From: an archaeon
GTDB taxonomy: Archaea > Nanobdellota > Nanobdellia > Pacearchaeales > GW2011-AR1
Reading direction: 5' to 3'
Assembly (NCBI GenBank): GCA_043810775.1
Contig: JBDRNU010000005.1
Coordinates: 1-22,347 of the forward strand
Length of the DNA stretch: 22,347 nucleotides
Both the position numbers and the translations under genes were made by a program. Positions 2 through 19,212 of this stretch are shown piece by piece. A model generated the notes under the pieces. The model searched no databases and was not told the DNA's origin. It saw only the letters and a program-made list of their open reading frames with translations. Every line of letters begins with the position of its first letter. The first letter of the stretch is position 1.

Positions 2-250
2 ATTGAAGCAATTAAAATTGTCAGAAAGCTCGTAGGAGAAACTCCCTACCCAGATGAATGCTCTCCAGGCACTATTCGCGGAGATTTTGCTCACATTTCA
101 AAAGTCTATGCTAATAAGCATGAAAAAAAAGTAGGCAATCTGATTCATGCTTCAGCTAACGAAAAAGACGCTGAATTTGAAGTTTCTCTCTGGTTCTCAA
201 AAAAAGAAATGCATACTTATTCTACAGTCCACGATAAGCATATAATTTAA
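2..250 (+). CDS. ndk: Nucleoside diphosphate kinase, C-terminal part (5' truncated by window)
   Basis: Manual translation from position 2: IEAIKIVRKLVGETPYPDECSPGTIRGDFAH...GNLIHASANEKDAEFEVSLWF...; PGTIRGDF and NxIHAS (catalytic His) are NDK signatures; stop TAA 248-250. Confidence 0.93.
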   Translation: MEAIKIVRKLVGETPYPDECSPGTIRGDFAHISKVYANKHEKKVGNLIHASANEKDAEFEVSLWFSKKEMHTYSTVHDKHII

Positions 251-964
251 TTATTTTTTATTTCTCAAGTAAAAAAATAAAATAGATGCCAAAATTAGTA
301 TCTCACCTATAAAGAATATTATCCAATTATAGCTTAAAGGAATATATTCTGAAATAATCTCCATAAATTCATGATTGCTAGCTAAAGTTAAAAACTCGCG
401 AAAATATCCGTTTTCAAGCATTAATTTCCCATAGTCAAACAAAAAAGTATAAAGTATAATGAGCGAGCCGCTAATAAAAAGAATTTTCTCTCTCAAATCT
501 ACCCTTATATTTTGGTTTCTTGCCTGAAAGTTAAGTATCAAAATAGACACTAAAATAATAGTTAGAGAGTATAAAATTGGAACTATCATCGGGCTTGCCC
601 ACGGAATAGGAATAAGAAAAAGCAAATCCCAAGTCAGCACTGAACTAGGCCAGTCTAAGATTACCTTCAGCCATATATAATAAAAAATATCCCAGATTGC
701 AAAACTATAAAAAAAGTATGCTAGTTTTCCATAAAACTTCTTCCCAGCCAAAAAAGCCACACAAGCAAGCATTACAATTGTAAAAAACTCGCGAACCCAC
801 TCTATTAAAATTATACTTGGATTAATCAACCCTGAAAGCGGAAAGTCAAATCCATTTGGATAAAAAAGCATCCTTAAATAAACCACTACAACTGTCTCAA
901 TAAAAGCCATAGCTATTGCAAAAAGTCCAACAATGGCTAGCTTTATACTATCCTCTTTTTTCAT
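251..964 (-). CDS. Multi-pass membrane protein of unknown function
   Basis: 237-aa ORF with about 6-7 hydrophobic segments and conserved-looking motifs (ETVVVVYLR, WDIFYY, WDLLFLIPIPW); its stop abuts the ndk stop. Confidence 0.75.
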   Translation of the reverse strand: MKKEDSIKLAIVGLFAIAMAFIETVVVVYLRMLFYPNGFDFPLSGLINPSIILIEWVREFFTIVMLACVAFLAGKKFYGKLAYFFYSFAIWDIFYYIWLKVILDWPSSVLTWDLLFLIPIPWASPMIVPILYSLTIILVSILILNFQARNQNIRVDLREKILFISGSLIILYTFLFDYGKLMLENGYFREFLTLASNHEFMEIISEYIPLSYNWIIFFIGEILILASILFFYLRNKK

Positions 965-1031
965 CTTAAATCTTCATCAGAAGTTTAAGAGGCAAAAACT
1001 TCAGTAGTTTTTTCATAATACACCTTCTCAA

Positions 1032-1046
1032 GGAAACTTTATATAT
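1032..1046 (+). promoter_or_regulatory. Archaeal BRE/TATA promoter of tRNA-Arg
   Basis: GGAAAC followed by TTTATATA (1038-1045), about 25 bp upstream of the tRNA 5' end at 1067. Confidence 0.6.
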
Positions 1047-1066
1047 TATTCTGTGCTTTATCTAAA

Positions 1067-1150
1067 GTCCCCATAGTTCAGCGGATAGAACGCGACCTTG
1101 CGGAATTTTGTAAAAAGGTTGAGACCGGGGTTCAAATCCTCGTGGGGGCA
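1067..1150 (+). tRNA. tRNA-Arg(GCG) with 12-nt intron at 37/38 (1104-1115); CCA not encoded
   Basis: Acceptor GTCCCCA/TGGGGGC, D stem GTTC/GAAC, anticodon stem CGACC/GGTTG, anticodon GCG 1100-1102, T arm CGGGG-TTCAAAT-CCTCG; 19 nt between anticodon stem strands = 7-nt loop + 12-nt intron. Confidence 0.92.
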
Positions 1151-1278
1151 TTATGCAATTGAACGAAGTGAAATTGCATTTCCCAAGGGGATTTAGTGAC
1201 AGCCAAACTCTGATATTCAAATCCCGAGCTTTTTCACGAGGCAATATTATTAATTAAATAACGAGTGAGGGAGCGAGT

Positions 1279-1291
1279 TCGTGGGGGCATT
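1279..1291 (+). repeat. 13-bp direct repeat of the tRNA 3' end (att-like)
   Basis: TCGTGGGGGCATT at 1140-1152 and 1279-1291. Confidence 0.75.
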
Positions 1292-1348
1292 TAAACCTAA
1301 AGTTTTATAAAATATAAAATCCCTATAAATGCTAGAAGAGGTGTTATA

Positions 1349-1756
1349 ATGAATAAACTAACAAAAAAAGTTTCTAATAAAAATACAGAGTTAAATGCAC
1401 TTAGTTTTAGAGAAATTCTAGCAATAATATTTATATCACTTCTTATAATCTCTCTAGTGGTAAGTATTTTCTACGAATTTAAAAATAATAGTTCTGATTC
1501 ACAAAAAGAGTTGACTAATACCCAAAATCAAGAAACAACTCCATCTACAACTTCTCCTACAACTACAAATCCTCCTGAAAACCAGGAAGTAGAATATGAC
1601 TGTAATTATGTATGGTACCAACAAATAGTTGATAAAACTACAAGAGAAATTTTATGGATTTGCACACTTGATAGGCCTTATTGCAAAGCAGGAACAACTC
1701 AATGTTGTAAATGGACTCAAACAACAAGGCACTATGATTGTCAAGAGATGAAATAA
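1349..1756 (+). CDS. Membrane-anchored surface protein with Thr-rich linker and C-terminal 6-Cys module
   Basis: GAGGTG RBS at 1338-1343 and TTTATAAA box near 1304; one TM helix, TTPSTTSPTTT linker, C..C..RPYC..QCC..C module. Confidence 0.8.
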   Translation: MNKLTKKVSNKNTELNALSFREILAIIFISLLIISLVVSIFYEFKNNSSDSQKELTNTQNQETTPSTTSPTTTNPPENQEVEYDCNYVWYQQIVDKTTREILWICTLDRPYCKAGTTQCCKWTQTTRHYDCQEMK

Positions 1757-1758
1757 AA

Positions 1759-3594
1759 ATGAAACTAAAATATTTACTTTTGATTTTTGCCACAATCTTT
1801 TTTTTGTCAAATGTGCATGCTGCAACTGTTTCATGTATAACTGAGAATACTTTCCCACAAATAGTAAAAATTAATAATATTAATTATCCTTGTAATGAAG
1901 CTAGGCCCTATTGTAATTTTGAAAAAGCCAGTCAGGGAATAGGGCAGTGTTGTGCTAGTTATGGGCCTTATTCTAATTGCATATACGCTTGCACAGAAAC
2001 CTGGTGGTGTTCTAGCTGGACTGCATGTACAAATAATCAGCAGACAAGAACCTGCACTGATTCAAATAATTGTGGAACTGTTAATACTAAACCTGTGATA
2101 AGTCAGAGTTGCACATGCACAGAAAATTGGGATTGTAATTGTTGGAGTAGATGTGACACAGGAGATACTAAACAAACAAGAACCTGCACTGATTCAAATA
2201 ATTGTGGAACTAGCACTACTAAACCTATAACTGAACAAAATTGCGATCCAAATGCACTGGTAAAAATGTATTGGCCAGATATTATACAAGGAGATGTCAC
2301 AGGAGTGGGCAATACTGGTCTTAAAATAGGAGGAAACTATAGATTCTATGTCAAACAGATAAATAAAGCATCAAATCCTAAAACTGTAACTTTAATTTTA
2401 ATGAAATCTGGAGTAGATTTAATAGAAAGAACAGTTTCTGAAAATGAAACTTTTAATTATGCTGATATGATTACAGCAAAACACATCAAGATTTATGAAA
2501 ACAACAATTATGTTGAATTTTCTCTTGATGATATTTGCTTACTCCCTTCAATTGCCCCCATAGGATTTGTACCCATTACTAATGGAGCAAATAGATTTGC
2601 ACTCGCACAAGGACAATATCTTGACGCTGGTTCAGGTTATTATCTAGGAATAAACTCAATTGATGCAAAAGCATCTCCAAAACAAGCATGGATAACTCTT
2701 TGGGGGGATGGGGGGATAAAAAAAGATGATAAAGTTGTTACTCAAGACGAGACATATATATACAAGGAAAAATCATGGCAAGGAAAATCAGATGTTCCTA
2801 TGTTCAGTACAAAAATTAATTCTATTTTTGCTGGAGCCACTTCAGATATGGTGCAATTGACAGAAACCTCTCTTAATGCATGGATATATTTTTATGCTTC
2901 AAATCCAGAACCACATATAGATTATTCTTTACCGTGGCAAGCATGTACAGAAAACTGGCAGTGTTCTTCTTGGAGCTCTTGCACAAATAATCAGCAGACA
3001 AGAACCTGCACTGATTCAAATAATTGTGGAACTGTTAATACTAAACCTGTGATAAGCCAGAGTTGTACTGTTGCAGATAATTCTTCATCTTCAAATTCCG
3101 AGTCAACCCAGCAACAAACTCAGTCCTCACAAGAAACTCAAACTCAATCCCAAGATAATCAAGAACAATCTTCATTCCAAAACAACCAACAGCAATATCC
3201 TGCATTATCCCCAGATATGGCAAATCAAAACAAGAATGTAGAAAGAATGGAGAATAAATCAATTATAAAAATTGGCAATAATTCTGTTGAAACTACTTTG
3301 GGAGTTATTGAGGAAGGTTCAAAAATTTATATTAATACTTCTGAAGGGAAAATAGAAATTAAAATTTCTCCAGAAATAGCAATAAATCAAAGTAAAGATA
3401 TGGAAAACATTTACAAGATAACAATTGAGGAATACCAAGGAAAAGTAGTTTATTATATTTTTGGGATGAGAAAAGCAAAACTCTTGCTGATTTTTTCAGT
3501 TATGGCAGAAATTGAAACAAAAATAGATGTTGAATCAGGAAATATTCTTGAAATAAAAAAGCCCTGGTGGGTTTTTTTAGCTTCTGGAGTTTAG
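1759..3594 (+). CDS. Secreted Cys-rich surface protein: N-terminal Cys module, three TSP1-like CTE(N/T)WxC..W..C..QTRTCTDSNNCGT repeats, S-layer (DUF1608-like) domain, Q/S linker, PepSY-like C-terminus
   Basis: Likely start ATG 1759 (MKLKYLLLIFATIFFLSNVHA signal peptide) just after upstream stop; repeats visible in protein and DNA; C-terminal IDVESGNILEIKKPWWVFLA. Confidence 0.85.
   Translation: MKLKYLLLIFATIFFLSNVHAATVSCITENTFPQIVKINNINYPCNEARPYCNFEKASQGIGQCCASYGPYSNCIYACTETWWCSSWTACTNNQQTRTCTDSNNCGTVNTKPVISQSCTCTENWDCNCWSRCDTGDTKQTRTCTDSNNCGTSTTKPITEQNCDPNALVKMYWPDIIQGDVTGVGNTGLKIGGNYRFYVKQINKASNPKTVTLILMKSGVDLIERTVSENETFNYADMITAKHIKIYENNNYVEFSLDDICLLPSIAPIGFVPITNGANRFALAQGQYLDAGSGYYLGINSIDAKASPKQAWITLWGDGGIKKDDKVVTQDETYIYKEKSWQGKSDVPMFSTKINSIFAGATSDMVQLTETSLNAWIYFYASNPEPHIDYSLPWQACTENWQCSSWSSCTNNQQTRTCTDSNNCGTVNTKPVISQSCTVADNSSSSNSESTQQQTQSSQETQTQSQDNQEQSSFQNNQQQYPALSPDMANQNKNVERMENKSIIKIGNNSVETTLGVIEEGSKIYINTSEGKIEIKISPEIAINQSKDMENIYKITIEEYQGKVVYYIFGMRKAKLLLIFSVMAEIETKIDVESGNILEIKKPWWVFLASGV
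2029..2102 (+). repeat. 74-bp intragenic direct repeat, copy 1
   Basis: Identical to 2983-3056; a 36-bp core also recurs at 2176-2211. Confidence 0.9.
2983..3056 (+). repeat. 74-bp intragenic direct repeat, copy 2
   Basis: Identical to 2029-2102. Confidence 0.9.
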
Positions 3595-3605
3595 GAATAA
3601 TTAAA

Positions 3606-3735
3606 ATCAAGAAGTCCTTGAGTTTACCACACACTAAAGTGTGTGGTTTGTTTGGACTTCTGGATGCTCAGAAAAATAAACTACATCCTTTAGGATGTAG
3701 ACAATGCTTTGCATTGTCAAATTTTTCTGACATAA
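3606..3735. repeat. Multi-hairpin palindromic element, short copy (REP/PATE/MITE-like)
   Basis: Stems GAAGTCC/GGACTTC, ACCACACAC-TAAA-GTGTGTGGT, TCAGAAAAAT/ATTTTTCTGA, CTACATCC-TTTA-GGATGTAG, GACAATGC/GCATTGTC; shares linkers with 4585-4860. Confidence 0.85.
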
Positions 3736-3738
3736 AAA

Positions 3739-4176
3739 CTATTTCTTTTTAACTGTATCAGATTTCTTAATCAAAAATCCGCCAATAATCAAGCTTATAG
3801 CAGCTATCATTGTTAAATAAACTCCAAGACCATTATTCATGACAACATCTACTGTTTTTGAAGGAATAACTTTTGTTGTATAAATCCAAATAAGTCCAGC
3901 TGTCAAAAAAGCAACTACTCCAAGAATTATTGTAAGTATCTTTGACTTTCTAAAAAATAATAATGCAATTGCAATAACTCCACATCCTGCACTAACATAG
4001 CCAAACTTCATCCCAATACCACTAATAGACTGACTCTCTAAATTAGGAGCTAATGCAGAAAGCTCAGCTGAAAAAGAACCACTAGCCCAAGTTAAAAATG
4101 CTGCAATTATTAAAACAATAGAAGCAATAATAACTAATAAATTTTCCCAATTACTGTAAGCCTCTTTTAAATCCAT
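3739..4176 (-). CDS. Small four-helix membrane protein of unknown function
   Basis: 145 aa with four hydrophobic segments. Confidence 0.75.
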   Translation of the reverse strand: MDLKEAYSNWENLLVIIASIVLIIAAFLTWASGSFSAELSALAPNLESQSISGIGMKFGYVSAGCGVIAIALLFFRKSKILTIILGVVAFLTAGLIWIYTTKVIPSKTVDVVMNNGLGVYLTMIAAISLIIGGFLIKKSDTVKKK

Positions 4177-4210
4177 ATTTAATAAAATTTAAGAGTATAT
4201 TTAAATCTTT

Positions 4211-4528
4211 TTATCTAGGATTTAACAAATTTTTATCTATTAATTCCCAAGAACCACCCATAAGTTCACACTCCTTTTTTGAAGGAGCATTAATATAAGT
4301 TATATTTTTTTCAGTTATGGCATTTGCAGGCATGCATTTTTTAGATTTTAATTCGCAAACACTAGCATAGGAAGGGCAATCATCATCAGTATTGCATGTC
4401 CCGATTTTATTGATTTTGTTGATATCAGTTATTACACAAAGAGCCATCTTATCTCCAGAAAATACAAAAACAAAGATAATTATCAAAACAATAACCCCTA
4501 CCCCTATAAAAATATATTTCACATTCAT
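4211..4528 (-). CDS. Small membrane-anchored Cys-rich protein
   Basis: N-terminal TM helix, CNTDDDCP..C..C and CELMGGSW motifs. Confidence 0.75.
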   Translation of the reverse strand: MNVKYIFIGVGVIVLIIIFVFVFSGDKMALCVITDINKINKIGTCNTDDDCPSYASVCELKSKKCMPANAITEKNITYINAPSKKECELMGGSWELIDKNLLNPR

Positions 4529-4584
4529 AAATAGAACAAGATTTTAGCATATAAAAATTTATTGATTAAAAACTAATTAAAAAT

Positions 4585-4860
4585 ATCAAAAAGTTCCTTG
4601 AGTTTACCACATGTCAGAATTAAAAATTCTGGGCACTGTCAAAATCTATTGATTTTGAAGCCTTTAAAAGGTGTGGTTTGCTGGAACTTTAGGATGCTCA
4701 GAAAACTGAAGGTTTTCGGGCACAGAAAATTGCAAAATTCAAAACAATTTTCTTGTGCTCAGAAATGCTCATCCACATCCTAAAGCTTCAGGAATGAAAA
4801 TTCCTGATAGTCATCAAAAATCTTTGATTTTTGAGAGATGTGGTTTAATTTATGACATAA
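4585..4860. repeat. Multi-hairpin palindromic element, long copy with three nested two-hairpin inserts
   Basis: Same scaffold as 3606-3735 (ATCAA..CCTTGAGTTTACCACA..GTGTGGTTTG..GGATGCTCAGAAA..TGACATAA) with extra hairpin pairs at about 4613-4660, 4695-4755 and 4786-4836. Confidence 0.85.
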
Positions 4861-4875
4861 TATTTAGGGCATTTA

Positions 4876-5478
4876 TTAAGAATATCCTGTAAACTCCCAG
4901 CCATCAAACAAGGCTCTTCCATCTAAAACATCTAAAACAAGCTCTCTAATTTCACTAGAGCTATAATTATTATTCCTTGCTTTCTCTACCCCTTCTTCAG
5001 ACAGTTTCATCAGCATATAAGCTATTTTCCCAAGAGTCTTTTCCTTGCCATTTCTATCAAAATATAATTTAATATCAAAGCTGAAAAAAGCTCTTCCATC
5101 AGCTTCCCTTAATTTATCAGCTTCCTTGCTTCCTCCAATCTCATGACTAGCCACCAGCTCCCAAACCCCATCAATATAATCTTTTAAATATCCCTGGTTT
5201 ATTAAAAGAGCTTTCATAAATTCAGCTGACCTTAAAGCATGCTTTCCCTTATACTTGTCATAATCTGTCAATTTTTTCAGTTTAGAATCAGTTTCTTCAC
5301 TAACTGATCTTTCAATATCATGCCCTAAAGCTGCAATTTGCAGCTCTTCAGGAGCATCTGGATTTAGCTCTAAAAGAGTTCTATGTACAGTTTCAGCATG
5401 AGGCAGATTCCAAAATGCCATATCTCCCTCTCTTAAAATTTTCCTGATTTCACCTAAAGTTTCTTCTAATCTTGCCAT
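4876..5478 (-). CDS. HD-superfamily metal-dependent phosphohydrolase (DUF4202-like)
   Basis: H...EELQIAALGHDIERS...HALRSA...HE..ADKLREAD motif pattern. Confidence 0.75.
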   Translation of the reverse strand: MARLEETLGEIRKILREGDMAFWNLPHAETVHRTLLELNPDAPEELQIAALGHDIERSVSEETDSKLKKLTDYDKYKGKHALRSAEFMKALLINQGYLKDYIDGVWELVASHEIGGSKEADKLREADGRAFFSFDIKLYFDRNGKEKTLGKIAYMLMKLSEEGVEKARNNNYSSSEIRELVLDVLDGRALFDGWEFTGYS

Positions 5479-5597
5479 AACTAAAGCTTATAATCTCAAT
5501 ATTTAAACTTTCCTAAAGCAAAAGCCTTTTATAGTCACTATTTATAATAAAATCATGGGGTGGTGCTTGCCTCAGAAAGCTAATTCTGAGTAAAGAA

Positions 5598-6812
5598 ATG
5601 GTAAAATATCACTTCACTAGCAGTAACCAAGAAAAGCTCATAGTAGAATATTTTAAATCAGGAAGCTTTAATAAAGCCACATACTCAATTCAAGGAAATA
5701 AACTTCTTGTATTTAAAAATCTAGAAGGTAGCCTAATTCTTGAAGACCTCTCAAGACAAGAATTTAACAAGCTTCATTTTGGGCAAGTTACCCGCGTTCC
5801 TCACCTAGAAAGAAGCATTGATGCTGAAGAAGGCCCACGCTTTGACCTTGCCTCATTTGACCTTGAATATGCTTGCAAACAGCTAGAAGAATCACGAAAA
5901 AGAAGAGATAAAATAGGGCATATAGATGATATGGTTGCTAGATACATTAAAAATGCTAGATATAATACTCCCCATCGTCTAAAAGAACTTGCAGCCTCTC
6001 CAGAAACTCTTAATCATATTATCTCAACACAAGAAGAAAACATCGAGCAACTTGCAGAAGTCTGGTTTCCAACCTACTTATCAACACTAACTGAACAGCT
6101 TGAATCTAAGCTACTAGCTTTACAAAAAAATTTTGAAAAAAAAGTAAGGGATTATGTTCATCCTGAAGGAGATTCAAAAAAAGCTTCAAAAAAAATTCAC
6201 TCTTCAGATATTTTAGGTTCAATTTCAGAAATTTATAAGTCATTCCAGCAAGCACTCTCATTTATGTCACAGCATCCAAACTTTGATACTCAATCAGCTT
6301 CAAACTACTGGCAAAATCTAGATTCACTAGCTGAAAAGCTAAATGGTTTTGAATTTCTAAAGTATGATCCAGAATTTATATCTCATCTCTCAAGGCACTT
6401 TCCAGGAACAAGTACGCCAGGTTCAATATTTACTAAGCACTGCTTTCAAAATCCAATCCAGGTTATTGACTGGGCATTTAGTATATTAAAAAAACCAGAT
6501 TCAAAGTCATTTTATCAGGGGCAAATACTTCACTATACAGCTAAAATGCCTAATACAGTAGGTCTTGATGCAGTAATTCTAGTTTCAGAACTGCCTGATA
6601 ATACTGAAATTAAAAAAGAAAAAAGAGATGGACTTCACGAAATTAATGTAGCTTATGGCATTGAAAAAAGACCAACAAACCTCATAACAATAGTAGCAGG
6701 TCCAATTCCAGAAAAAGACTATCATGGCTTTCTCTCAATTTTTCCAGGAAAAAACTATCCTCCAATAGAAGAAGCCCCTGAAGTTTGGGAAGAGCTTGCA
6801 TTTATAGCTTAA
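5598..6812 (+). CDS. Hypothetical protein (helical N-terminal/central region; alpha/beta C-terminal domain)
   Basis: 404-aa open frame; no confidently recognised family; 3' end overlaps convergent gene by 11 bp. Confidence 0.7.
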   Translation: MVKYHFTSSNQEKLIVEYFKSGSFNKATYSIQGNKLLVFKNLEGSLILEDLSRQEFNKLHFGQVTRVPHLERSIDAEEGPRFDLASFDLEYACKQLEESRKRRDKIGHIDDMVARYIKNARYNTPHRLKELAASPETLNHIISTQEENIEQLAEVWFPTYLSTLTEQLESKLLALQKNFEKKVRDYVHPEGDSKKASKKIHSSDILGSISEIYKSFQQALSFMSQHPNFDTQSASNYWQNLDSLAEKLNGFEFLKYDPEFISHLSRHFPGTSTPGSIFTKHCFQNPIQVIDWAFSILKKPDSKSFYQGQILHYTAKMPNTVGLDAVILVSELPDNTEIKKEKRDGLHEINVAYGIEKRPTNLITIVAGPIPEKDYHGFLSIFPGKNYPPIEEAPEVWEELAFIA

Positions 6813-8184
6813 TAAAAGTATGATGCTTCACTAAAATTCCAAAATCTTTTCCAGACTCCTTGCACAGCCTCATAATATACTTCCTGGCAAGATGGTCCAT
6901 ATTTTGAAAAGCCTTAAGACCAGCTAGTTGCAAGCCATGCGCAATAATAGAAGTGTCCCTCACCCTAATAACTCCAAACATTTTCTTTAAATCCTCTAGT
7001 GAATCCCCTTTAACAATAAAATCATTCATAATATGTAGCAAAATATAGCCATCTTTTAATCCAATTTCAAAAGGGCTCTCTTTTTCAAAGCCATAAATCT
7101 CTTTTGTTGCTTTTTTATACTCACTCTTAAATTTTTTTAAGTCAGGCCTTGAAGTTTCAACTCCGTTTTTTCTTAATCTATGCTGGGAAATAAGCTCCAA
7201 AACTCTGTATAGCCTGCTTACAGCATCTTCAAAAGTCCCAACTTCAGCTTTCCTCAAAGCATTTACATATAAGTCAATAATAATATGGAGATTAAATTCA
7301 TCGCTTAACTTTTCAGGATTTTTAACATCTCCACTAGATAGAATTTTTAAAACCTCAAAATTACTTTTAAGCTCAGGATTAAACTTAAGATTATACTGCT
7401 TGGCTTTTTTCAATAAAGAGTCCATCCTATGAAAAGCTGCAGGAAAATTAAAAGAATTCCAATGCAAATAACACTCAGATAAAATTTCCTCAGTCTCAAC
7501 AGTCCTGGGATCAGTAACCCTTTCCCTTAACCTTTTATAAAAAAATAAAGATGCTCCAAAATTATATCTGTTAAAAAGTTTTATTGATTCTTTTCTTTCC
7601 AAATCTCCAAAAACTTCAAACGGATTCTTGACTTGCACTAGCTTTTCAGTTCCAGGAAGGCCTCTCTTAATATCATCAACCCATCCCTCATCAATATAAA
7701 CTAAATCAAAACTAAAAAAAGCTCCAACAATCCCTGCACCAGCAGACATTATTCTCTTTCCTCTAGTTAAATCTAAAATAACTCTCTTGCCATAAAATAA
7801 GTCAAGTCTCTTCCTTATTTTCTCATAAACATCAGCTACATCCATTTCATCATAATTTAAAGTATCAATAATGTAATCTGCAGCCCTTAATCCTGTTTTT
7901 TGAATTATCCTGTCAAGAAAGTTTTCCTTAAATTCATGAGTTCCTAAAAAATAAACCTTTTTTGGCTTAATGGCTTTAATTAGTAATATATAATAACTAG
8001 ACTCAAGTCCAGCAGGAAGAACAAGCCAGTCATAATTTTCATCTAAGCTATTTTCACTAAGAAACTTCTTCTCAATTTCAGGAAAAAGTTCATCCCAGTA
8101 AAGCTCATCAGCTTCAGCTATCTTGCATACTTTTATCAAGCTAATCCACTGCTCTCTAAGAGCCTCAAGTCCCTTAATCTGCAT
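6802..8184 (-). CDS. CARF-HEPN ribonuclease, TIGR02710 / Csm6-like family, with no cas genes in window
   Basis: CARF motif ILDLTRGKRIMSAGA; NPFEVFGD..LFNRYNF; DLYVNALRKA..FEDAVSRLYRVLELISQHRL; HEPN motif RDTSIIAHG near the C-terminus. Confidence 0.82.
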   Translation of the reverse strand: MQIKGLEALREQWISLIKVCKIAEADELYWDELFPEIEKKFLSENSLDENYDWLVLPAGLESSYYILLIKAIKPKKVYFLGTHEFKENFLDRIIQKTGLRAADYIIDTLNYDEMDVADVYEKIRKRLDLFYGKRVILDLTRGKRIMSAGAGIVGAFFSFDLVYIDEGWVDDIKRGLPGTEKLVQVKNPFEVFGDLERKESIKLFNRYNFGASLFFYKRLRERVTDPRTVETEEILSECYLHWNSFNFPAAFHRMDSLLKKAKQYNLKFNPELKSNFEVLKILSSGDVKNPEKLSDEFNLHIIIDLYVNALRKAEVGTFEDAVSRLYRVLELISQHRLRKNGVETSRPDLKKFKSEYKKATKEIYGFEKESPFEIGLKDGYILLHIMNDFIVKGDSLEDLKKMFGVIRVRDTSIIAHGLQLAGLKAFQNMDHLARKYIMRLCKESGKDFGILVKHHTFIKL

Positions 8185-8220
8185 AAATTAGCATGTTTTT
8201 AAGAATTATAAAATTATCGG

Positions 8221-8661
8221 TTAAACTTTTTTATTGAATCTCTCGACTTTTTGACAATCCAAAAGGCCTGCAGTGGGAAATAAAACTTCAGAAAAAGTCT
8301 TAACTTTTGCTCCCAATAAAGTTTCTAAACTTTCAACTTCCACTAATATTAATAAACTTCTTTCAATAAAAGATTTTACTATTGCTTTCCCAGATTGAGG
8401 GGATATTTGCCCCGCATAAGCCTCTAAATCCTCTTTATCAACACCCACAAACTCTCCTCTAATCCTAGATATCATTAAAAATCTATATGCAAATTCTTCA
8501 GATCCAGACGAGTCTAAACTTGATGGAACAGGTTTGTTAGGACAAGTTTCTATATCGTATTGTGCACTAAGTCCTCTAGAATTCTTATCAGTATAAGTTA
8601 CTCGAAAAAAACAACTAGCTTTTGGTTCCATATTAGTTAAATATAATTTTTCTTCTACCAT
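8221..8661 (-). CDS. Hypothetical protein
   Basis: Open frame directly downstream of radA; ATG at 8661 follows the radA stop (ORF track start 8682 overlaps radA). Confidence 0.6.
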   Translation of the reverse strand: MVEEKLYLTNMEPKASCFFRVTYTDKNSRGLSAQYDIETCPNKPVPSSLDSSGSEEFAYRFLMISRIRGEFVGVDKEDLEAYAGQISPQSGKAIVKSFIERSLLILVEVESLETLLGAKVKTFSEVLFPTAGLLDCQKVERFNKKV

Positions 8662-8662
8662 T

Positions 8663-9670
8663 TTAAACCTTGGGCTCGTCATCCTGCAGTCCGCCCTTAG
8701 TTACAAAGAAAACAGTTTCATTATCTGGCAGGTTAGGGCTGTCAATTAGCTTAGCTACTCTCGAGCCTTTTTTGCCTCTTCTTAGATAAATTCTGTAAGT
8801 AGAAGCATGCCCTACAATATTCCCTCCAATCGCAGTAGTGGGATCTCCAAACATCATTGCAGGATTAGACATAACCTGATTAGTCACATATACTGCAAGA
8901 TTATGCTGTTCTGCAAGTTTCATTAAATTATGCAAATATCTGTTCAGCCTCTGCTGCCTGTCAGCTAGCTGTCCTCTTCCAGAAAACTCAGCTCTAAAAT
9001 GTGCAGTCAAGCTGTCCACTATTACAAGTTTTATATTCTCACCTTTTTTAATCATCTCCCCAACCTTATCCACTAATAATATCTGATGATCAGAATTAAA
9101 AGCCCTCGCTACAAAAATATTTTTTAAGATTTTTTCAGAATTAGCTCCAATTGCCTCAGCCATATTCTTGATTCTTTCTGGCCTGAAAGTTCCTTCAGTA
9201 TCAATATATACTGCCTTCCCATTAGCCCCACCCTTATCAAATGGGAGCTGGACATTCACAGCTAGTTGCAATCCTAGCTGTGTTTTTCCGCTACCATAAG
9301 CACCAAAGGTTTCAGTAATAGCCTTGGTTTCAATACCTCTTCCTCCCAGAAGCGCATCTATATTCTTGCTTCCAGCAGTAATATTATTTACCTCTTCTCT
9401 TTTTTTGGCATATTCAAGTCCATCTTGAAATCCAAGATCCATCATTTTCCTGGCTGCCTGAATAGCCTTTCTAGCAACTGCTTCTCCTAGTCCTGCTAGT
9501 TCAGATAAGTCAGATGGCCCCATTACTGCTAGACCCATTAAATCATAAACTCCTGCATCTTCAAGCTTCTTAGCCACAGTTGGCCCTATTCCTGGTAAGT
9601 CAGTTAGTTTAGGCTCAGCTTTTTCCTCTTTTTCAGTTTTTTCGTCTTTTTCATCCTTTCCCTTAGTCAT
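8663..9670 (-). CDS. radA: DNA repair and recombination protein RadA
   Basis: N-terminal HhH (LTDLPGIGPTVAKKL), Walker A GAYGSGKTQ, YIDTEGTFRPER, LVIVDSLTAHFRAE, VTNQV, GGNIVGHASTYR; likely ATG start 9670. Confidence 0.97.
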   Translation of the reverse strand: MTKGKDEKDEKTEKEEKAEPKLTDLPGIGPTVAKKLEDAGVYDLMGLAVMGPSDLSELAGLGEAVARKAIQAARKMMDLGFQDGLEYAKKREEVNNITAGSKNIDALLGGRGIETKAITETFGAYGSGKTQLGLQLAVNVQLPFDKGGANGKAVYIDTEGTFRPERIKNMAEAIGANSEKILKNIFVARAFNSDHQILLVDKVGEMIKKGENIKLVIVDSLTAHFRAEFSGRGQLADRQQRLNRYLHNLMKLAEQHNLAVYVTNQVMSNPAMMFGDPTTAIGGNIVGHASTYRIYLRRGKKGSRVAKLIDSPNLPDNETVFFVTKGGLQDDEPKV

Positions 9671-9746
9671 TTCATCAAATACCCTCAATTCTTTATAAAG
9701 ATTTATTCAATTGTAGTATAGATATTAGAGAATATATAAGATAAGA

Positions 9747-13523: not shown

Positions 13524-14126
13524 ATGTTGAGTAAAGAACAAGCAGATAATATAAAAAAAGAACTCTTAAATCAGCTTGAGTCATTTCCTGCTGAGCAGAG
13601 AGAAACTGTAAAAGCCCAGATTGAAGCAATGAATCCTGAACAGCTTGAGCAGTTTCTCATTCAAAATAAGTTGATAAAAGATGGTGAAAATGGGAAATGC
13701 ATTTTCTGTGAAATTACAGGAGGAAGTGTCCCAAGCTTCAAAATAGATGAAAATGCTGAATCTATTGCAGTTCTTGAGCTGAATCCTCTTTCAAAAGGCC
13801 ATATTATAATAATCCCAAAAAAACATTTGGCTAAAAACGAGATTCCAAAATCATCCTATGAACTAGCTGACTCACTTTCAGAAAAATTAAAGAAAAAGTT
13901 TAATTCTGAAAAAGTTGAAATTTCTGAATCAGAATTCCTGGGCCACGGGATACTTAATATTATTCCTAGCTACTCTGGAGCTAAGCTTGAGAAAAAGCAG
14001 GCTTCTAAAGAAGAGCTAGAATCACTTCAAAAAGAGCTTCTTGCAGAAGAAGCTTCAGAAAAACAAGAGATTATTGAAGAACCAGAAGAGAAAGTAATTT
14101 ATCGGGCTCCAAGAAGAATTCCTTAA
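13524..14126 (+). CDS. HIT-family protein with degenerate histidine triad
   Basis: CIFC, LELNPLSKGHIIIIPKKH; triad position reads HGILNIIP; likely ATG 13524. Confidence 0.8.
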   Translation: MLSKEQADNIKKELLNQLESFPAEQRETVKAQIEAMNPEQLEQFLIQNKLIKDGENGKCIFCEITGGSVPSFKIDENAESIAVLELNPLSKGHIIIIPKKHLAKNEIPKSSYELADSLSEKLKKKFNSEKVEISESEFLGHGILNIIPSYSGAKLEKKQASKEELESLQKELLAEEASEKQEIIEEPEEKVIYRAPRRIP

Positions 14127-14968
14127 AATAAGCCAAATACTTCAAAAAATCCGCCATAATAAAACCAAGCTACTACTAGTATTATAAAGGCAATTAAAAA
14201 TGCAGGTACAAAGGGAATTCCCTCTTTAACATATATACTTTTTCTTGACTTCTTTAGGATTTTTAAATCTCTGATTGTAAGCCCCTGCCAGTTAGGTTTT
14301 ATTAAGTTTATTCCAATTCTGACTTCCTTGTAAAGCCAGTCTCCCTCAACTAACTTGCTGGGCTTTACTTTCTTAACCATACAGCTCTCTTCAATTGACC
14401 TTGCATAAGTATAAAGAAAAGGAAAAATAAAAATTAAGACTCCTAAAAATAATATAAATTTTTCACTAAAATATGAAGCTGTAATCAGAATAATTATAAA
14501 AACAACTAAAGCAAAAATAAAAGCAAACTTATTTTTAATAAACTGTACTTTAAACTCTTTTGCAAATTTCTTTCTAAATTTGAAAGTTAGCACAAAACTA
14601 TATAGTAATCCATATACACTGCCAGCTAGCAATAATAAGAAAACAAATACTAAAAATATGCTTAAATTAATTGCAAACGAGCTTGAAAAAGGCAGTACAG
14701 GACCTAAAGCAATTAATAATTTAGCGTCACCGCCTGCAAAAATCTTTCCATAATAGAAAATATAACCTAGGGCAAAAAATATGGCAAATCCTATTAACCC
14801 CTGCACTAGAAATGAGGCATCAGCCTCAATCAGGCTTTTCATTACACGATAGGATAATGCTACAGCTACTAGTGAAAAGTTGAGCCAATTAGGAACCTCT
14901 CGCTTTCTTACATCGCTAATACTCGCAGCTACTATCCATATAGCTGCCAATATAATCAGAAAAATCAT
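14123..14968 (-). CDS. Prepilin/class III signal peptidase (A24, PibD/FlaK/EppA-like)
   Basis: SDVRKREVPN, GGDAKL catalytic Asp motifs, LVEGDW, EGIPFVPAF; multi-TM. Confidence 0.92.
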   Translation of the reverse strand: MIFLIILAAIWIVAASISDVRKREVPNWLNFSLVAVALSYRVMKSLIEADASFLVQGLIGFAIFFALGYIFYYGKIFAGGDAKLLIALGPVLPFSSSFAINLSIFLVFVFLLLLAGSVYGLLYSFVLTFKFRKKFAKEFKVQFIKNKFAFIFALVVFIIILITASYFSEKFILFLGVLIFIFPFLYTYARSIEESCMVKKVKPSKLVEGDWLYKEVRIGINLIKPNWQGLTIRDLKILKKSRKSIYVKEGIPFVPAFLIAFIILVVAWFYYGGFFEVFGLF

Positions 14969-15090
14969 TTTTCTTCCTTTTTTTCTATTTCTTGGCTTCT
15001 AAATTTTCCGCCTTTCTTGTAAACTCTATAAAGGCGCTTTTTCTTTTTGTCTCGTTTTGTTTTTCTTCTCTCAGGAAATCCATAATCCAT
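14965..15090 (-). CDS. Small basic protein, 41 aa (not in ORF track)
   Basis: MDYGFPERRKTKRDKKKKRLYRVYKKGGKFRSQEIEKKEEK; starts 1 bp after upstream stop and ends in ATGA overlap with the peptidase start. Confidence 0.7.
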   Translation of the reverse strand: MDYGFPERRKTKRDKKKKRLYRVYKKGGKFRSQEIEKKEEK

Positions 15091-15091
15091 T

Positions 15092-15406
15092 TTAGCAAGT
15101 AATACTATCACATTTAACATCAATTATCTCACTTCTACAAGTTACATTTACAAATCCATCTACCTCTCTAAGCCTTTCACAAAAATCATACTTTAATCCA
15201 GAATCACAAGCAGCCTTGCATGCAGAAATTGTAACTTGAGTATCAGAAGGTGAAGTCTCTTCCAAGTTTCCAGAAAATCTTTCAAATCCCCCTGTAAAAA
15301 ATAAAACTAGTGCAATTAGTACAAATATTCCTAGAATAATTATAACTAGAGTTGATATTGCAATTTCCATACCTCTCGAGCTGATTCGCGAGACATTCTT
15401 TTTCAT
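15092..15406 (-). CDS. Class III signal peptide (pilin-like) Cys-rich protein
   Basis: SRG/MEIAISTLVIIILGIFVLIALV; CKAAC..YDFC; AGAGGT RBS. Confidence 0.8.
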   Translation of the reverse strand: MKKNVSRISSRGMEIAISTLVIIILGIFVLIALVLFFTGGFERFSGNLEETSPSDTQVTISACKAACDSGLKYDFCERLREVDGFVNVTCRSEIIDVKCDSITC

Positions 15407-15420
15407 TTTACCTCTTTTTC

Positions 15421-15446
15421 AATAGCGAGCGGGTCAGCGAGCTATT
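15421..15446. repeat. Small GC-rich palindrome (AATAGC-GAGCGGGTCAGCGA-GCTATT)
   Basis: 6-bp inverted repeat around a GARYG..AGYGA core also seen at 1153-1179 and 1260-1279. Confidence 0.55.
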
Positions 15447-15483
15447 TATCATAACTAAATTAAGAATTAAGAGTTTTTAAAGT

Positions 15484-16110
15484 TTAAGCTGAACAAGCAC
15501 CACTAGCAGAAGTAGTTCCAACAGCTGGAGTAATTGTACATTTTGGATTGGCAGTATCACACTGAGCTGTTTCGCACTTACAAGGCAATGCTGTATTTGC
15601 AGCTGAACCGTCTGTAAATGCACAAGCTGAAACTATAGTAGCTGCAGTTCCAACACAACAAACATAATTATAAGAAATTATTCCCCAATTTTTATCAAAT
15701 ACCTTAGTATTATCTTCAGTTGTTCCTGAAGGGCAACTGCCTTTTTTTGCTGTTTCTCCAGTACACTTAACTTCATCTCCACAATCATTTTGATAATTAC
15801 ATGTAAAGGAACAGTCAGTAGGACGAACTCGGTCATCAGAAACGCATGTTGCAGTGATAGGATCTGCTTCTTTTGAAAATCTAACTTCTCTTGATGTGCA
15901 ACAATAAGTGTACTTTCCTGAAGTAGTGCAAGCATAAGAACAAGCCTGCTTAACTGAATCAACATTTACAGGTGAAAAATATCCGGAAATCTTGCCCCAT
16001 AAATTCCCCCACCCAGTCCCAAAACCCAAGGCAATAACAACAAGAACAATTATAGCTAACACTATTACCACTAGCGTACTAATAGTCATCTCTGCGCCTC
16101 TTTTATTCAT
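15484..16110 (-). CDS. Class III signal peptide (pilin-like) Cys-rich protein
   Basis: KRG/AEMTISTLVVIVLAIIVLVVIALGF; CSYAC..YTYCC paralogous to 15092-15406; TTTATAAA about 25 bp upstream. Confidence 0.85.
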   Translation of the reverse strand: MNKRGAEMTISTLVVIVLAIIVLVVIALGFGTGWGNLWGKISGYFSPVNVDSVKQACSYACTTSGKYTYCCTSREVRFSKEADPITATCVSDDRVRPTDCSFTCNYQNDCGDEVKCTGETAKKGSCPSGTTEDNTKVFDKNWGIISYNYVCCVGTAATIVSACAFTDGSAANTALPCKCETAQCDTANPKCTITPAVGTTSASGACSA

Positions 16111-16150
16111 TTAAGGAATAACAAAATATTATTTATAAACCTTTCTACAT

Positions 16151-16897
16151 CTACATCACAAAACTCAATTTAACAGACTCATACTTGCCATTAATTATAA
16201 ATTTCTTCTTGCTAGTAAGCTCAACTAAATTCCTGCCAGCAGAAACTGGCTTAACTTTTACATTAAAATTATCTAGCTTAGAAGAAATACATCCTCCTCT
16301 ATCACTCTCACTAATGCATCCCTTGCAAGCATAATAAATATCCTGAAAACTAGCTAATCCCATTTCACTCAAGCTAATCCCAACCCTGACATTAAGAGGA
16401 TAATTGCTCCAGTCTATTTTTACTCCCTGACTATCACTAATATAACCCTCAAACTTTCCCCCATCAGCCCTTACAATAATGCTATTTCCATCAACAGTAT
16501 ACTCCAAGTTATAGCTGTCCAGGCCATATAAAACAGCATCAGGCTTATTCAAGCTAGACTCAATCCTTGCCCTAAACTCTTCATTAATATTGCTGTTTAA
16601 ATTTTCAAAAATAATATATCCTATATCTTGTGCATTTCCTTGAGCATAAAAATTATCTCCAACCATACTCTTATAAGCATCAATAACTGCCTGTTCAGAT
16701 AAAAAATCAAGAGATAAAGCAAAATTCTGTTCTTGTGCAAAAACACTTGTCAAAACCCCATAATTAAAAGTCCTGTCTTCAAGCTTGCTTCCCTGAGTAA
16801 TAAAAATAAACAAAGCTGAAAAAAATACAAGAAGAACCCCAACTGTAAAAATCATAATTACAATTTCAAGTCCCCTCTTATCTCTTAACAAACCCAT
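16151..16897 (-). CDS. Class III signal peptide protein
   Basis: DKRG/LEIVIMIFTVGVLLVFF. Confidence 0.78.
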   Translation of the reverse strand: MGLLRDKRGLEIVIMIFTVGVLLVFFSALFIFITQGSKLEDRTFNYGVLTSVFAQEQNFALSLDFLSEQAVIDAYKSMVGDNFYAQGNAQDIGYIIFENLNSNINEEFRARIESSLNKPDAVLYGLDSYNLEYTVDGNSIIVRADGGKFEGYISDSQGVKIDWSNYPLNVRVGISLSEMGLASFQDIYYACKGCISESDRGGCISSKLDNFNVKVKPVSAGRNLVELTSKKKFIINGKYESVKLSFVM

Positions 16898-17565
16898 CTT
16901 TCTTTATACTCTATTTTAATTTTATTTCCATTATAATCAAGCTCAGCAATTGCAGAAGGCACCTCATTATAAAACCTGACTAATTCAGGCAAAGCCTGCA
17001 CTTCTGGATCTCCATTATCTAATCTATAAGTAAAAATCTCTCCAACATTATTTGAAGTAGCAAGTCCTTGTTTTCCTATTTTGTAAAAATGAGCAGTAGG
17101 AGTCTTAATATAATACTCTCTGCACTCATCATCTATCAAGCTCCTTATTGGAGTAACTACTCTAAATAAGTCATCTTTATTTACTCCAATTGAGGAAAGT
17201 TGCCTTTCATTCCATATTCCCAGCTTAAAAATATTATTCATATCAGAAATATCAGTCTGAAGACTTTGAATAGCCTCTTGCTTTAGTGTTGAGTCAGTAT
17301 AAGGAATAGCATTAAGAATTAACATGTCTTTTACTAGCACATTCTCACTTACACCATCACCATTAATATCATACTGCACACTAGTTCTCAGCAAGCTATC
17401 TAAAGTGTAAGAAAGGAAAAAATAAGAAATCTCCTCCCTGTCGCCTCCACCTATATTCAAAGCTAAAACCAATGCAATAAAAATAAATCCAACTGCTAAG
17501 ATTATAATTATTGAAGGTATCCAAGTTATCAAACTTTCAATCTGCGCTCTTTTATGTCTTAACAT
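16885..17565 (-). CDS. Class III signal peptide protein
   Basis: Likely start ATG 17565: MLRHKRA/QIESLITWIPSIIIILAV; contains DINGDG. Confidence 0.78.
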   Translation of the reverse strand: MLRHKRAQIESLITWIPSIIIILAVGFIFIALVLALNIGGGDREEISYFFLSYTLDSLLRTSVQYDINGDGVSENVLVKDMLILNAIPYTDSTLKQEAIQSLQTDISDMNNIFKLGIWNERQLSSIGVNKDDLFRVVTPIRSLIDDECREYYIKTPTAHFYKIGKQGLATSNNVGEIFTYRLDNGDPEVQALPELVRFYNEVPSAIAELDYNGNKIKIEYKERWVC

Positions 17566-18046
17566 TTTGTTCAGTCTTATAAACTCCTGAAATAATTTCA
17601 ATATCATTTAATTTATATCTAAAGCACTGAGGTAGCTTCTCATGGCTCTCACCAATTTGAATTCCAGCAAATTTCTTTCTTTTGCTTTCTTGCTGCAGCT
17701 CACAGTAAACTCCTCCCCCCTCATCCCCATAAATAATCTCACCACTAGGGGAAATAATCTTAATATAATATTCAGAATCTATAATAATCCCGCACTCTTT
17801 TCTTAGCAATACTAAATCCTGGCTAGCTAACCTATCCAACTTGCCAGTTAGCTTTCCATTATCAACTAAACAGTCATAGATTTTCAAAGAAAGAATCTGC
17901 GCCTCCAATCCTCTACTGTCAATTTCCTTGCTCCTTACAATAAAAACTCCCGCAACTAAAAAAAATGCCACCAATACAAACATTATAAACCACCAGATAA
18001 TAGTAATATCCTCAGCTCTCTTATCGCGAATAATTTCTCTAATCAT
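17552..18046 (-). CDS. Class III signal peptide protein
   Basis: DKRA/EDITIIWWFIMFVLVAFF; four Cys. Confidence 0.78.
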   Translation of the reverse strand: MIREIIRDKRAEDITIIWWFIMFVLVAFFLVAGVFIVRSKEIDSRGLEAQILSLKIYDCLVDNGKLTGKLDRLASQDLVLLRKECGIIIDSEYYIKIISPSGEIIYGDEGGGVYCELQQESKRKKFAGIQIGESHEKLPQCFRYKLNDIEIISGVYKTEQNVKT

Positions 18047-19062: not shown

Positions 19063-19212
19063 ATACTAAATTTCCTTGCAATTTAAATTTAACTCTATCA
19101 TAAAGCTTAAATATCCTAGAATAATGCTAATTCTATCCTTGGGTAAAGAGTTCTGATATGAGTTAAAATGAATAGAAGGCAATTTTTAGGGAAAGCTGCA
19201 TTAGGAACAGCT
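19063..19212. repeat. Divergent promoter plus Tat-leader module, copy 1
   Basis: About 150 bp highly similar to 22168-22316, including TGCTAATTCTATCCTTGGGTAAAGAGTTCTGATA and GAGTTAAAATGAATAGAAGGCAATTTTTAGGGAA. Confidence 0.9.

Follow-up and report, generated by a model that had tools for sequence, protein, structure and literature searches.

A predicted cysteine-rich surface protein of a Pacearchaeota-like archaeon carries middle modules of the DUF1608 S-layer domain

The DNA examined here is a stretch of 22,347 nucleotides (nt) on contig C5 (JBDRNU010000005.1) of an archaeal draft genome, hereafter the window, and its subject is the gene at positions 1759-3594 of the forward strand (stop codon included), which according to the list of open reading frames (ORFs) and their translations encodes a secreted modular protein of 611 amino acids (aa). 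The ORF lies in frame 1 and opens at 1738 or 1759, the 611 residues being counted from the first ATG; the peptides quoted in a preliminary description of the window are in frame, and an identical protein is present in the protein collection as P0002. The window has 33.5% G+C and densely packed genes, and the draft genome to which it belongs (G000) comprises 26 contigs and 995 kb at 80% completeness. Archaeal genes around the gene of interest encode RadA, aEF-1beta, an RPA-like protein and a prepilin peptidase. Of the 120 proteins listed for RadA, all except the window's own lie at 77-89% identity, the closest organism-labelled relatives belonging to an archaeon (89% identical), a Nanoarchaeota archaeon and a Candidatus Pacearchaeota archaeon. 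Judged from such gene content, the organism appears to be a Pacearchaeota-like member of the DPANN archaea (Diapherotrites, Parvarchaeota, Aenigmarchaeota and Nanoarchaeota together with Nanohaloarchaeota). The genomes of its relatives in the collection measure 0.4-1.4 Mb, and an organism of this type is thought to live attached to other cells, probably as a symbiont.

The protein begins with a predicted Sec signal peptide (1759-1821, residues 1-21), recognized by eye from the sequence and ending VHA before A22, which is followed by an N-terminal Cys-rich module (1822-1989, residues 22-77) that aligns to the N-termini of two proteins of the collection, P0011 and P0021. For signal peptide and N-terminal module taken together, the identity to P0011 across 254 columns is 34% (E 4e-33); to P0021 it is 32% (E 2e-22). 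Two Cys repeats of ~42 residues each come next (1990-2244, residues 78-162), with the pattern C-x3-W-x-C-x2-W-x2-C ... C-x-D-x3-C-G, and a third, matched by many relatives, lies further downstream (2944-3069, residues 396-437). Between the second and third of these W-C-W-C repeats stand two copies of the middle sub-domain of the S-layer domain DUF1608: a degenerate copy 1 (2320-2541, with a profile match at 2320-2493 and a modelled beta-sandwich to 2541) and a well-conserved copy 2 (2566-2877, with a Pfam match at 2596-2862). The protein closes with a low-complexity linker in which S, Q, T and N are abundant (3070-3225, residues 438-489) and a C-terminal tail domain of ~120 residues (3226-3591) that ends KPWWVFLASGV. 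All of these parts lie on the forward strand. With three W-C-W-C repeats and two modules, the protein contains 4.3% Cys; its translation is free of CxxCH motifs, and its C-terminus (...KKPWWVFLASGV) lacks a long hydrophobic stretch or C-terminal membrane helix.

Neither the W-C-W-C repeats nor the tail domain matched any Pfam family at E <= 1. In searches of Atlas structures, the repeats reached template modelling (TM) scores of 0.29-0.37 against TSP1 clusters, below the bar at which the tool names a family. The tail reached TM 0.84 to unnamed small hypothetical proteins of Nanobdellota and of the candidate phyla radiation (CPR) and TM 0.52-0.61 to PepSY/TseB clusters; these are predicted models throughout, and the PepSY/TseB-like fold of the tail is one of predicted structure only. 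Tail-type domains of ~120 aa that end in KKPWW-[AV]-[FL]-LAS occur in three proteins of the genome (window 3226-3591, C2:37978-38664 and C2:51559-52500); they belong to no Pfam family and are also found in many small proteins of relatives and, by predicted structure, in CPR proteins. At the DNA level, a 142-nt direct repeat (left copy 1987-2128, right copy 2941-3082, both on the forward strand) encloses Cys repeat 2 and both modules. Its two copies are 85% identical and share a 62-nt core that is 100% identical, and these repeat-coding stretches around the modules are likely sites of domain shuffling by recombination.

Copy 2 matches the Pfam family PF07752 (S-layer, DUF1608) at residues 280-368 (nt 2596-2862) with 39.0 bits (E 6e-10), above the curated gathering score of 30 bits. 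Residues 167-400 alone reach 47.1 bits, and a six-frame search of the genome with PF07752 returned a single site, copy 2, at 39.2 bits. The NCBIfam model TIGR01567 (S-layer family duplication domain), which has a cut-off of 121.9 bits, scored the full protein at 31.1 bits and residues 167-400 at 34.4 bits, below the threshold in both cases. An independent profile made from 32 homologous module segments, with the query left out, detects copy 2 with 101.8 bits (residues 281-370) and also detects copy 1 with 22.5 bits (residues 188-245, nt 2320-2493; E 6.5e-9 in a single-sequence search), while another profile, A1, finds copy 1 at nt 2320-2475 with 28.9 bits (E 9.8e-7 for one genome). Compared with each other by BLASTP, the two copies share 24% identity over 50 residues (E 2e-4). 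Copy 2 covers positions 112-200 of the 259 in the PF07752 model, and on a full-unit profile of 322 positions, built from 26 complete DUF1608 units of 13 tandem-domain proteins, it spans positions 157-246 and copy 1 spans 166-214. Both copies therefore represent the middle of DUF1608, the N-part and C-part being absent, and the 611-aa protein carries only the ~95-aa middle module rather than the complete domain.

The best sequence identities of copy 2, about 49-56% over ~95 residues, are to tandem-DUF1608 proteins that include one labelled Candidatus Methanoperedens, and tblastn of the module to Methanoperedens genome contigs gave 51-52%; MA0829 (3u2g) is reached by sequence with E 0.0015 only. 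In the alignments, the hallmark motifs are nearly unchanged between native S-layer proteins and copy 2, the conserved stretches of the module being SIDAKA-P-Q-W and SIFAGATSDMVQL.

The structure of the S-layer domain of MA0829 from Methanosarcina acetivorans, deposited as PDB 3U2G and 3U2H, was reportedly described by Arbing and colleagues in 2012. The solved DUF1608 domain consists of two sub-domains and a flexible linker, according to the accessible part of a later account (PMC9012536). An AlphaFold2 model of residues 170-396, computed from a 51-row alignment, had a mean predicted local distance difference test (pLDDT) of 82.9 and a predicted TM score (pTM) of 0.60. Both copies were modelled as confident beta-sandwiches whose seven strands follow in equal order at an offset of 100 residues, with block pLDDT of 86-95 for copy 1 (model residues 19-92) and pLDDT of 92-98 for copy 2 (model residues 101-204). 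In a Foldseek search of the PDB, the top two matches were the MA0829 entries (3u2g, E 1.3e-6; 3u2h, E 1.9e-5). VIA-align placed model residues 100-224 on MA0829 residues 393-510 (3u2g) with Z 13.9 and a root mean square deviation of 2.9 Å over 111 residues at 19-20% identity, and the next unrelated structure, the CcsBA periplasmic domain, followed at Z 8.0. Copy 1 searched alone had no clear structural match (best Z 4.2). As predicted by these models, the solved DUF1608 fold is present for the middle sub-domain only. The preliminary description had placed a DUF1608 match at 2596-2870 with a weaker sister copy at about 2317-2490, and had likened the former to versions in Candidatus Methanoperedens; the profile matches, the identities and the shared strand order bear out all three points. 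It had also spoken of a DPANN-style surface protein, in agreement with the Cys-rich secreted protein and the Pacearchaeota-like genome found here.

The remainder of the protein has a different distribution. The whole 611-aa sequence is matched in 48 of the 60 relatives searched, and those matches are restricted to residues 41-194 (repeats), 329-464 (repeat 3 and short extensions) and 422-611 (tail). Residues 195-328 are covered, among the 60 relatives, by no match other than the gene itself, and the Cys repeats are the part of the protein matched most often. Within the genome, the repeat occurs in eight ORFs, the tail in three and the module in this gene alone, and most of the repeat-bearing ORFs have membrane anchors and other ectodomains. 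The best repeat-bearing match in the same-genus relative (G001) is the ortholog of another gene of G000, and tail-only proteins are found in relatives. The scaffold of Cys repeats and tail is native to the Pacearchaeota-like lineage, and the module payload is not.

A word-indexed search with residues 170-410 returned 20 proteins. The best matches, 49-54% identical across ~95 residues, are proteins of 700-1050 aa that contain full domains in tandem and include one labelled Ca. Methanoperedens, and three matches have the architecture of the query, one of these labelled Ca. Magasanikbacteria. An exhaustive representative search yielded 277 clusters at E <= 0.001, of which 150 were listed, and 166 proteins were then examined. 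In 16 of the 166 (query included), the Cys content is 2.4-8.5% and the modules are exclusively free-standing and lie between W-C-W-C repeats. This group is defined here by a ~95-aa module without N- and C-parts, W-C-W-C flanks, secretion and more than 2% Cys; the 611-aa protein and 15 further proteins belong to it, with one to four module copies per protein. Over the stretch that begins with repeat 1, includes copy 2 and ends with repeat 3, P0021 is collinear with the 611-aa protein (36% identity across 364 columns, E 2e-57), as is P0011, and both have a second Cys module where the query has copy 1. A tail with the ending ...PWW-x-FL is also present in P0064, P0103, P0118 and the 585-aa relative encoded by G132, a genome of the same class. 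A scan of species genomes with a single peptide pattern, which gives loci rather than a census, returned eight: four from Ca. Methanoperedens or Methanoperedenaceae (39-52%), one from a 'Methanobacteriota archaeon' (54%), one from an uncultured archaeon (52%), one from Ca. Micrarchaeota (48%), which is the Cys-type protein P0024, and one from Ca. Magasanikiibacteriota (39%), which is of the Cys type as well. One architecture is common to a few ultra-small archaea (Pacearchaeota-like and Micrarchaeota) and a CPR bacterium.

The ~95-aa middle module also stands alone in many other proteins, including non-Cys ones. At locus L005, on a Ca. Methanoperedens contig, the ORF from locus position 943 (1633 aa) contains five tandem middle modules, which lie between the N-part and the C-part of one DUF1608 unit and are followed by a further partial unit. 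Because of the solo copies in many proteins and the five tandem copies in L005, the middle module can be regarded as an autonomous unit. The Ca. Micrarchaeota locus L006 (G458 contig C27:8834-12281) has two neighbouring genes, one of 733 and one of 593 aa, both of which carry four free-standing modules in addition to Cys repeats; this is the densest occurrence seen outside Methanosarcinia. When viral contigs were scanned with two patterns from the module alignment, tblastn confirmed none of the 38 pattern matches.

PF07752 was found in none of the 60 relatives (one of the same genus, 35 of the same family and 24 of the same order). Profile A1 matched 2 of 401 genomes in the organism's own phylum, namely G000 and G132 (same class, another family). 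Among 201 genomes from the Micrarchaeota genome's phylum it matched two, and among 401 from that of the CPR genome it matched the seed only. In the class to which the Methanoperedens genome belongs, 148 of 151 genomes had matches; only five of them, seed included, scored 140-165 bits, the remainder reaching at most 67 bits, and the high scores of the Methanoperedens type are partly due to construction because A1 was built from Methanoperedens-type and Cys-type sequences. Module matches per genome number 19 and 18 in two Methanoperedens, eight in the Micrarchaeota genome (in the two adjacent genes) and one in the CPR genome. The module is near-universal in the class of the Methanoperedens genome and sporadic in three ultra-small phyla.

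The gene lies within a variable segment of 4.37 kb (1153-5519) that is missing at the syntenic site of G001. The left border of this segment is the 3' end of a tRNA-Arg(GCG)-like gene on the forward strand (1067-1150, ARAGORN). Contig C1 of G001 is collinear with window positions 137-1152 (73%) and then directly with 5520-5590, 5798-5840, 6740-8224 and 8661-9700, its tRNA-Arg(GCG) being followed at once by the ortholog of the gene at 5598-6812. By comparison with this one relative, the segment has the position of a tRNA-linked genomic island or integrative element, abutting a tRNA 3' end and absent from a close relative. The G001 ortholog of the tRNA is a clean tRNA-Arg(GCG). Relative to it, roughly twelve additional bases follow directly on the anticodon in the window's tRNA, possibly a small intron, and because of these bases ARAGORN calls a four-base anticodon.

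Besides the gene itself, the segment contains an upstream membrane ORF, two further small membrane ORFs, one DUF4202 gene and several copies of a hairpin element. The upstream ORF (1349-1756, forward strand, 135 aa) has a membrane helix at its N-terminus, a linker rich in T and P and a Cys-rich piece at its C-terminus, stops 2 nt ahead of the ATG of the gene and reaches the Pfam cut-off of no family; it may be a membrane partner of the 611-aa protein. A paralogous relation to the N-terminal Cys module of the gene was considered and set aside, the shared 'RPYC ... QCC' being visible and the BLASTP values (E 0.09-0.6) not significant. Directly 3' of the gene is a repeated element (3601-3726) with terminator-like hairpins, which matches three other G001 contigs at 79-87% and recurs in the window at 4595-4710; further copies of the hairpin element (4575-4858) match sequences of at least seven other contigs of G001 with 76-100% identity. 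A scan for sigma-70 promoters gave 11 sites where 13.9 were expected (no excess), and is not relevant here because the organism is an archaeon.

The place of copy 2 among other modules was assessed with two trees, both unrooted and of 97 columns. For the quick tree, 298 module matches in 165 proteins were reduced to 280 that cover at least 75 of 97 profile positions and, after four identical ones were merged, to 276 rows. A group of 89 rows unites 29 of 29 Cys-type, 54 of 62 other free-standing and six canonical or partial-unit copies; its Shimodaira-Hasegawa-like approximate likelihood ratio test (SH-aLRT) value is 92 and it is not starred. Copy 2 is an early branch inside this group (support 83). 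The careful tree has 102 hand-picked rows, made up of all Cys-type copies, two of G132, 33 free-standing, 34 canonical and four partial ones. In it, with bootstrap not fully settled, copy 2 falls in a polytomy with other free-standing lineages, outside the two canonical clades that are well supported, one of 30 rows (97/90) and one of eight (100/99).

Because its distribution is patchy and the segment with the gene is missing at the syntenic site of G001, horizontal acquisition of the module is well supported. We consider it probable that the gene encodes a secreted, disulfide-rich surface protein in which two horizontally gained, Methanosarcinia-type DUF1608 middle modules have been placed on a native scaffold. 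The preliminary description had gone further and proposed a horizontally captured S-layer fragment of Methanoperedens-like type that would serve in host mimicry or docking. The distribution and the missing segment in G001 agree with capture as such, and a one-off event between Methanoperedens and this organism does not stand, since free-standing copies occur on the same scaffold in Micrarchaeota, G132 and CPR and are found in Methanoperedens proteins too. The trees, a phylogeny of the segment being a check that the same description had proposed, likewise place copy 2 among free-standing copies and outside both canonical clades. The genome-like G+C content at third codon positions (GC3) speaks against a recent transfer.

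Several observations weigh against the reading of modules gained from Methanosarcinia and used on a partner. The branching place of copy 2 is not fixed, no starred clade containing it, and its identity to canonical modules (median 48%, maximum 61%), Cys-type modules (46%, 57%) and other free-standing modules (44%, 58%) is about equal, so that the immediate donor cannot be named. The direction from canonical to free-standing rests on distribution because the root of the tree was not inferred. For the other 24 genes of the window, GC3 is 0.247 +/- 0.045 (0.169-0.334); the modules, at 0.197, fall inside this range and show no compositional mark of foreign DNA. The transfer was therefore not recent, or the donor was another low-G+C organism. 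The ORFs of the 4.4-kb segment include no integrase, DUF4202 being their only Pfam family, and a repeat of the tRNA end of at least 14 nt was not found at the far border. Only one relative is comparable (G001, same genus, 85% complete), and the indel may instead have originated by deletion in G001; among 25 relatives, the genes flanking the segment were found only in G001, plus one weak match in G041, and because they are genus-specific further relatives do not polarize insertion against deletion. The genomes searched are samples, many of them incomplete, and absence means that a feature was not found in those searched. CPR and DPANN carriers of the module may have hosts other than Methanosarcinia, and a general binding fold would be equally in keeping with the fusions of the module, in other proteins, to many unrelated domains.

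If the modules were gained in this way, the module pair or the whole gene would have come from a pool of free-standing modules derived from Methanosarcinia S-layer proteins, possibly via other episymbionts and long enough ago for the composition to become genome-like. The identical repeat-coding flanks of the modules would have acted as exchange sites for domain shuffling, and the repeat-coding DNA and the tRNA-adjacent variable segment may together be a route for payload swapping. The modules would form the binding end of an adhesin that recognizes the S-layer lattice or glycans of a Methanosarcinia partner such as Methanoperedens, the lattice contacts made by the middle sub-domain in native S-layers being re-used for binding that partner. 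The Cys repeats would form a stiff stalk, and the hold on the cell would come from the tail or from the putatively co-transcribed upstream membrane ORF. An adhesin is the simplest reading because a secreted disulfide-rich stalk and a highly conserved S-layer sub-domain come together in an organism with an attached lifestyle. Binding of a Methanosarcinia S-layer by the modules is put forward tentatively, and docking to a host in this manner is plausible.

A complex prediction between residues 170-396 (A2) and residues 69-696 of P0008 (A3), a tandem-DUF1608 protein of the Methanoperedens type, scored 0.00 twice and, having been run without controls, is uninformative on binding. Among the sequencing runs searched, two groundwater metagenome runs of one study contain part of the window (word shares 0.24 and 0.08), and no RNA run contains it. 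When both runs were mapped at 80% minimum likeness to the Methanoperedens mcr locus, contigs of 163-577 nt at a depth of 3-4 were obtained, which are 87-95% identical to Methanoperedens mcrA and the gene upstream of it, the uncovered parts of the mcrA locus being without meaning. All that follows is the low-depth presence of some Methanoperedens-like organism in samples containing this DPANN genome or a related one; as a clue to the host it is a weak co-occurrence, without control for how common such organisms are in groundwater.

The module could instead be a beta-sandwich suited to binding in general, with a glycan or some other polymer as a conceivable ligand; it would have spread by virtue of being a handy payload, its target in this protein would have nothing to do with S-layers, and its ancestry would be uninformative on the host. 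Such a role would suit the precomputed Pfam labels that combine the module or domain with PKD, carboxypeptidase-regulatory-like, FGE-sulfatase and other partners, the free-standing copies in many non-Cys proteins, the other payloads of the paralogous repeat proteins in G000 and the presence of a CPR bacterium among the carriers. We nevertheless regard it as somewhat unlikely. The hallmark motifs are kept between native S-layer proteins and copy 2, and a conserved contact is therefore favoured over a drifting binding site. Moreover, the family is otherwise almost restricted to Methanosarcinia, a narrow range also found in the accessible portions of two earlier studies, which confine DUF1608 to Methanosarcinales and a few other euryarchaea (PMC3361143; PMC4460559).

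An extension of the adhesin proposal in the opposite direction would make the middle module a host-lattice 'key', taken repeatedly from Methanosarcinia by episymbionts of both domains, passed among themselves on the Cys-repeat stalk and fitting Methanoperedens-like S-layers. From the sequences at hand this seems rather unlikely; if it were true, the presence of the module in a symbiont genome would predict the host lineage.

It is distinctly improbable that the protein is a component of the organism's own envelope, either a minor S-layer-associated or a wall-building one, without contact to a host. The 611-aa protein is secreted, and each Methanosarcina genome has about ten DUF1608 paralogs, mostly minor envelope proteins as far as the available text of PMC3361143 tells. 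However, the PF07752 match in this gene is the sole one in the genome (80% complete), so that there is no own DUF1608 lattice to join; a core wall component is ruled out because none of the 60 relatives has PF07752 and G001 lacks the whole segment; and a C-terminal membrane helix is absent. That the gene or its contig stems from a co-assembled methanogen or methanotroph, or that the contig is chimeric, is very improbable indeed: the genome is a 26-contig draft and the public runs that hold it best are metagenomes with Methanoperedens-like mcrA fragments, but the gene equals its neighbours in G+C and GC3, those neighbours are Pacearchaeota-like (RadA 78-89% to named Pacearchaeota or Nanoarchaeota proteins), the flanks of the modules on both sides are scaffold parts matched in 48 of 60 relatives, and the borders of the variable segment lie within G001-collinear sequence.

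Known systems share parts of this architecture. The major S-layer protein of Methanosarcinales (MA0829/SlmA1) is built, in the portion of PMC3361143 available, from a signal peptide, a tandem of two full DUF1608 domains, a linker and, at the C-terminus, a membrane helix. The 611-aa protein, with its signal peptide recognized by inspection, resembles MA0829 in the fold of residues 393-510 and passes the PF07752 threshold with copy 2, but it has no full DUF1608, hence neither N- and C-parts nor tandem full domains, lacks the membrane helix and shares only ~20% identity. The Methanoperedens-type tandem-DUF1608 proteins (P0008, L003-L005) have the highest identity and, in L005, an independently repeated module; unlike the 611-aa protein they keep their own DUF1608 N- and C-parts, contain 0-0.8% Cys and belong to genomes of 2.8-3.3 Mb with 18-19 copies. 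Comparable as well are Cys-repeat proteins of other ultra-small lineages, namely P0024/L006 (Micrarchaeota), P0021/L009 (Magasanikbacteria), the G132 protein, P0011, P0020, P0060, P0071, P0103 and P0118, which have in common with it the N-terminal Cys module, the W-C-W-C repeats and a free-standing module. P0011 and P0021 differ in their second Cys module, instead of which the 611-aa protein has a tandem made up of a conserved and a degenerate module.

There are precedents for parts of this reading. Multihaem cytochromes of anaerobic methanotrophic archaea (ANME) are fused to the S-layer domain, and DUF1608 there places other functions in the S-layer, as stated in the accessible part of Chadwick et al. 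(2022; PMC9012536). The 611-aa protein resembles these fusions in employing DUF1608 as a module, which here would place another function in or at an S-layer; they involve a whole domain, the organism's own S-layer and haem motifs, whereas here a sub-domain is found in a foreign ultra-small organism. Borg elements of Methanoperedens encode S-layer proteins with two PF07752 domains, for which the authors suggest mimicry of host proteins in the part of the article available (PMC9879509). They are likewise genetic entities associated with Methanoperedens that have S-layer-domain proteins, but theirs are full tandem domains on an extrachromosomal element, in contrast to a sub-domain in the adhesin-like protein of what is probably a cellular symbiont. 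CPR cells attach to Methanothrix, according to the available text of a preprint (bioRxiv 10.1101/2022.04.20.488981). In the literature searched, outside of which most subscription journals fall, and as far as the texts were accessible, no published description of the DUF1608 module in DPANN or CPR proteins or of the Cys-repeat group was found.

Other parts of the window also hold genes of note. On the reverse strand at 6802-8184 is a gene for a Csm6-like protein with Csm6 HEPN and 6H domains and a weak CARF match; the annotation of the window contains no other cas gene and no array of clustered regularly interspaced short palindromic repeats (CRISPR), and G001 has an ortholog at the syntenic place. 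At 14123-19058, also on the reverse strand, five small ORFs whose N-termini are hydrophobic and pilin-like come after a prepilin-peptidase gene; this cluster, which includes a membrane-anchored trypsin-like protease, resembles a type IV pilus-like surface cluster. A 585-aa ORF on the forward strand (19168-20925) begins with a twin-arginine-like motif (MNRRQFLGKAALG...) and matches no Pfam family at E <= 0.001.

To our knowledge, host recognition and attachment in DPANN archaea and CPR bacteria are largely unknown, and for most lineages so is the host itself. The middle module would be a concrete and testable candidate for host recognition in such organisms, and genomes of partners of methane-cycling archaea could possibly be recognized by it. 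For the family, the findings indicate that the middle sub-domain of DUF1608 is autonomous, duplicating and moving independently. Should the function of the protein turn out to be an ordinary one, the gene would still be a clean example of a surface-protein architecture transferred between domains of life.

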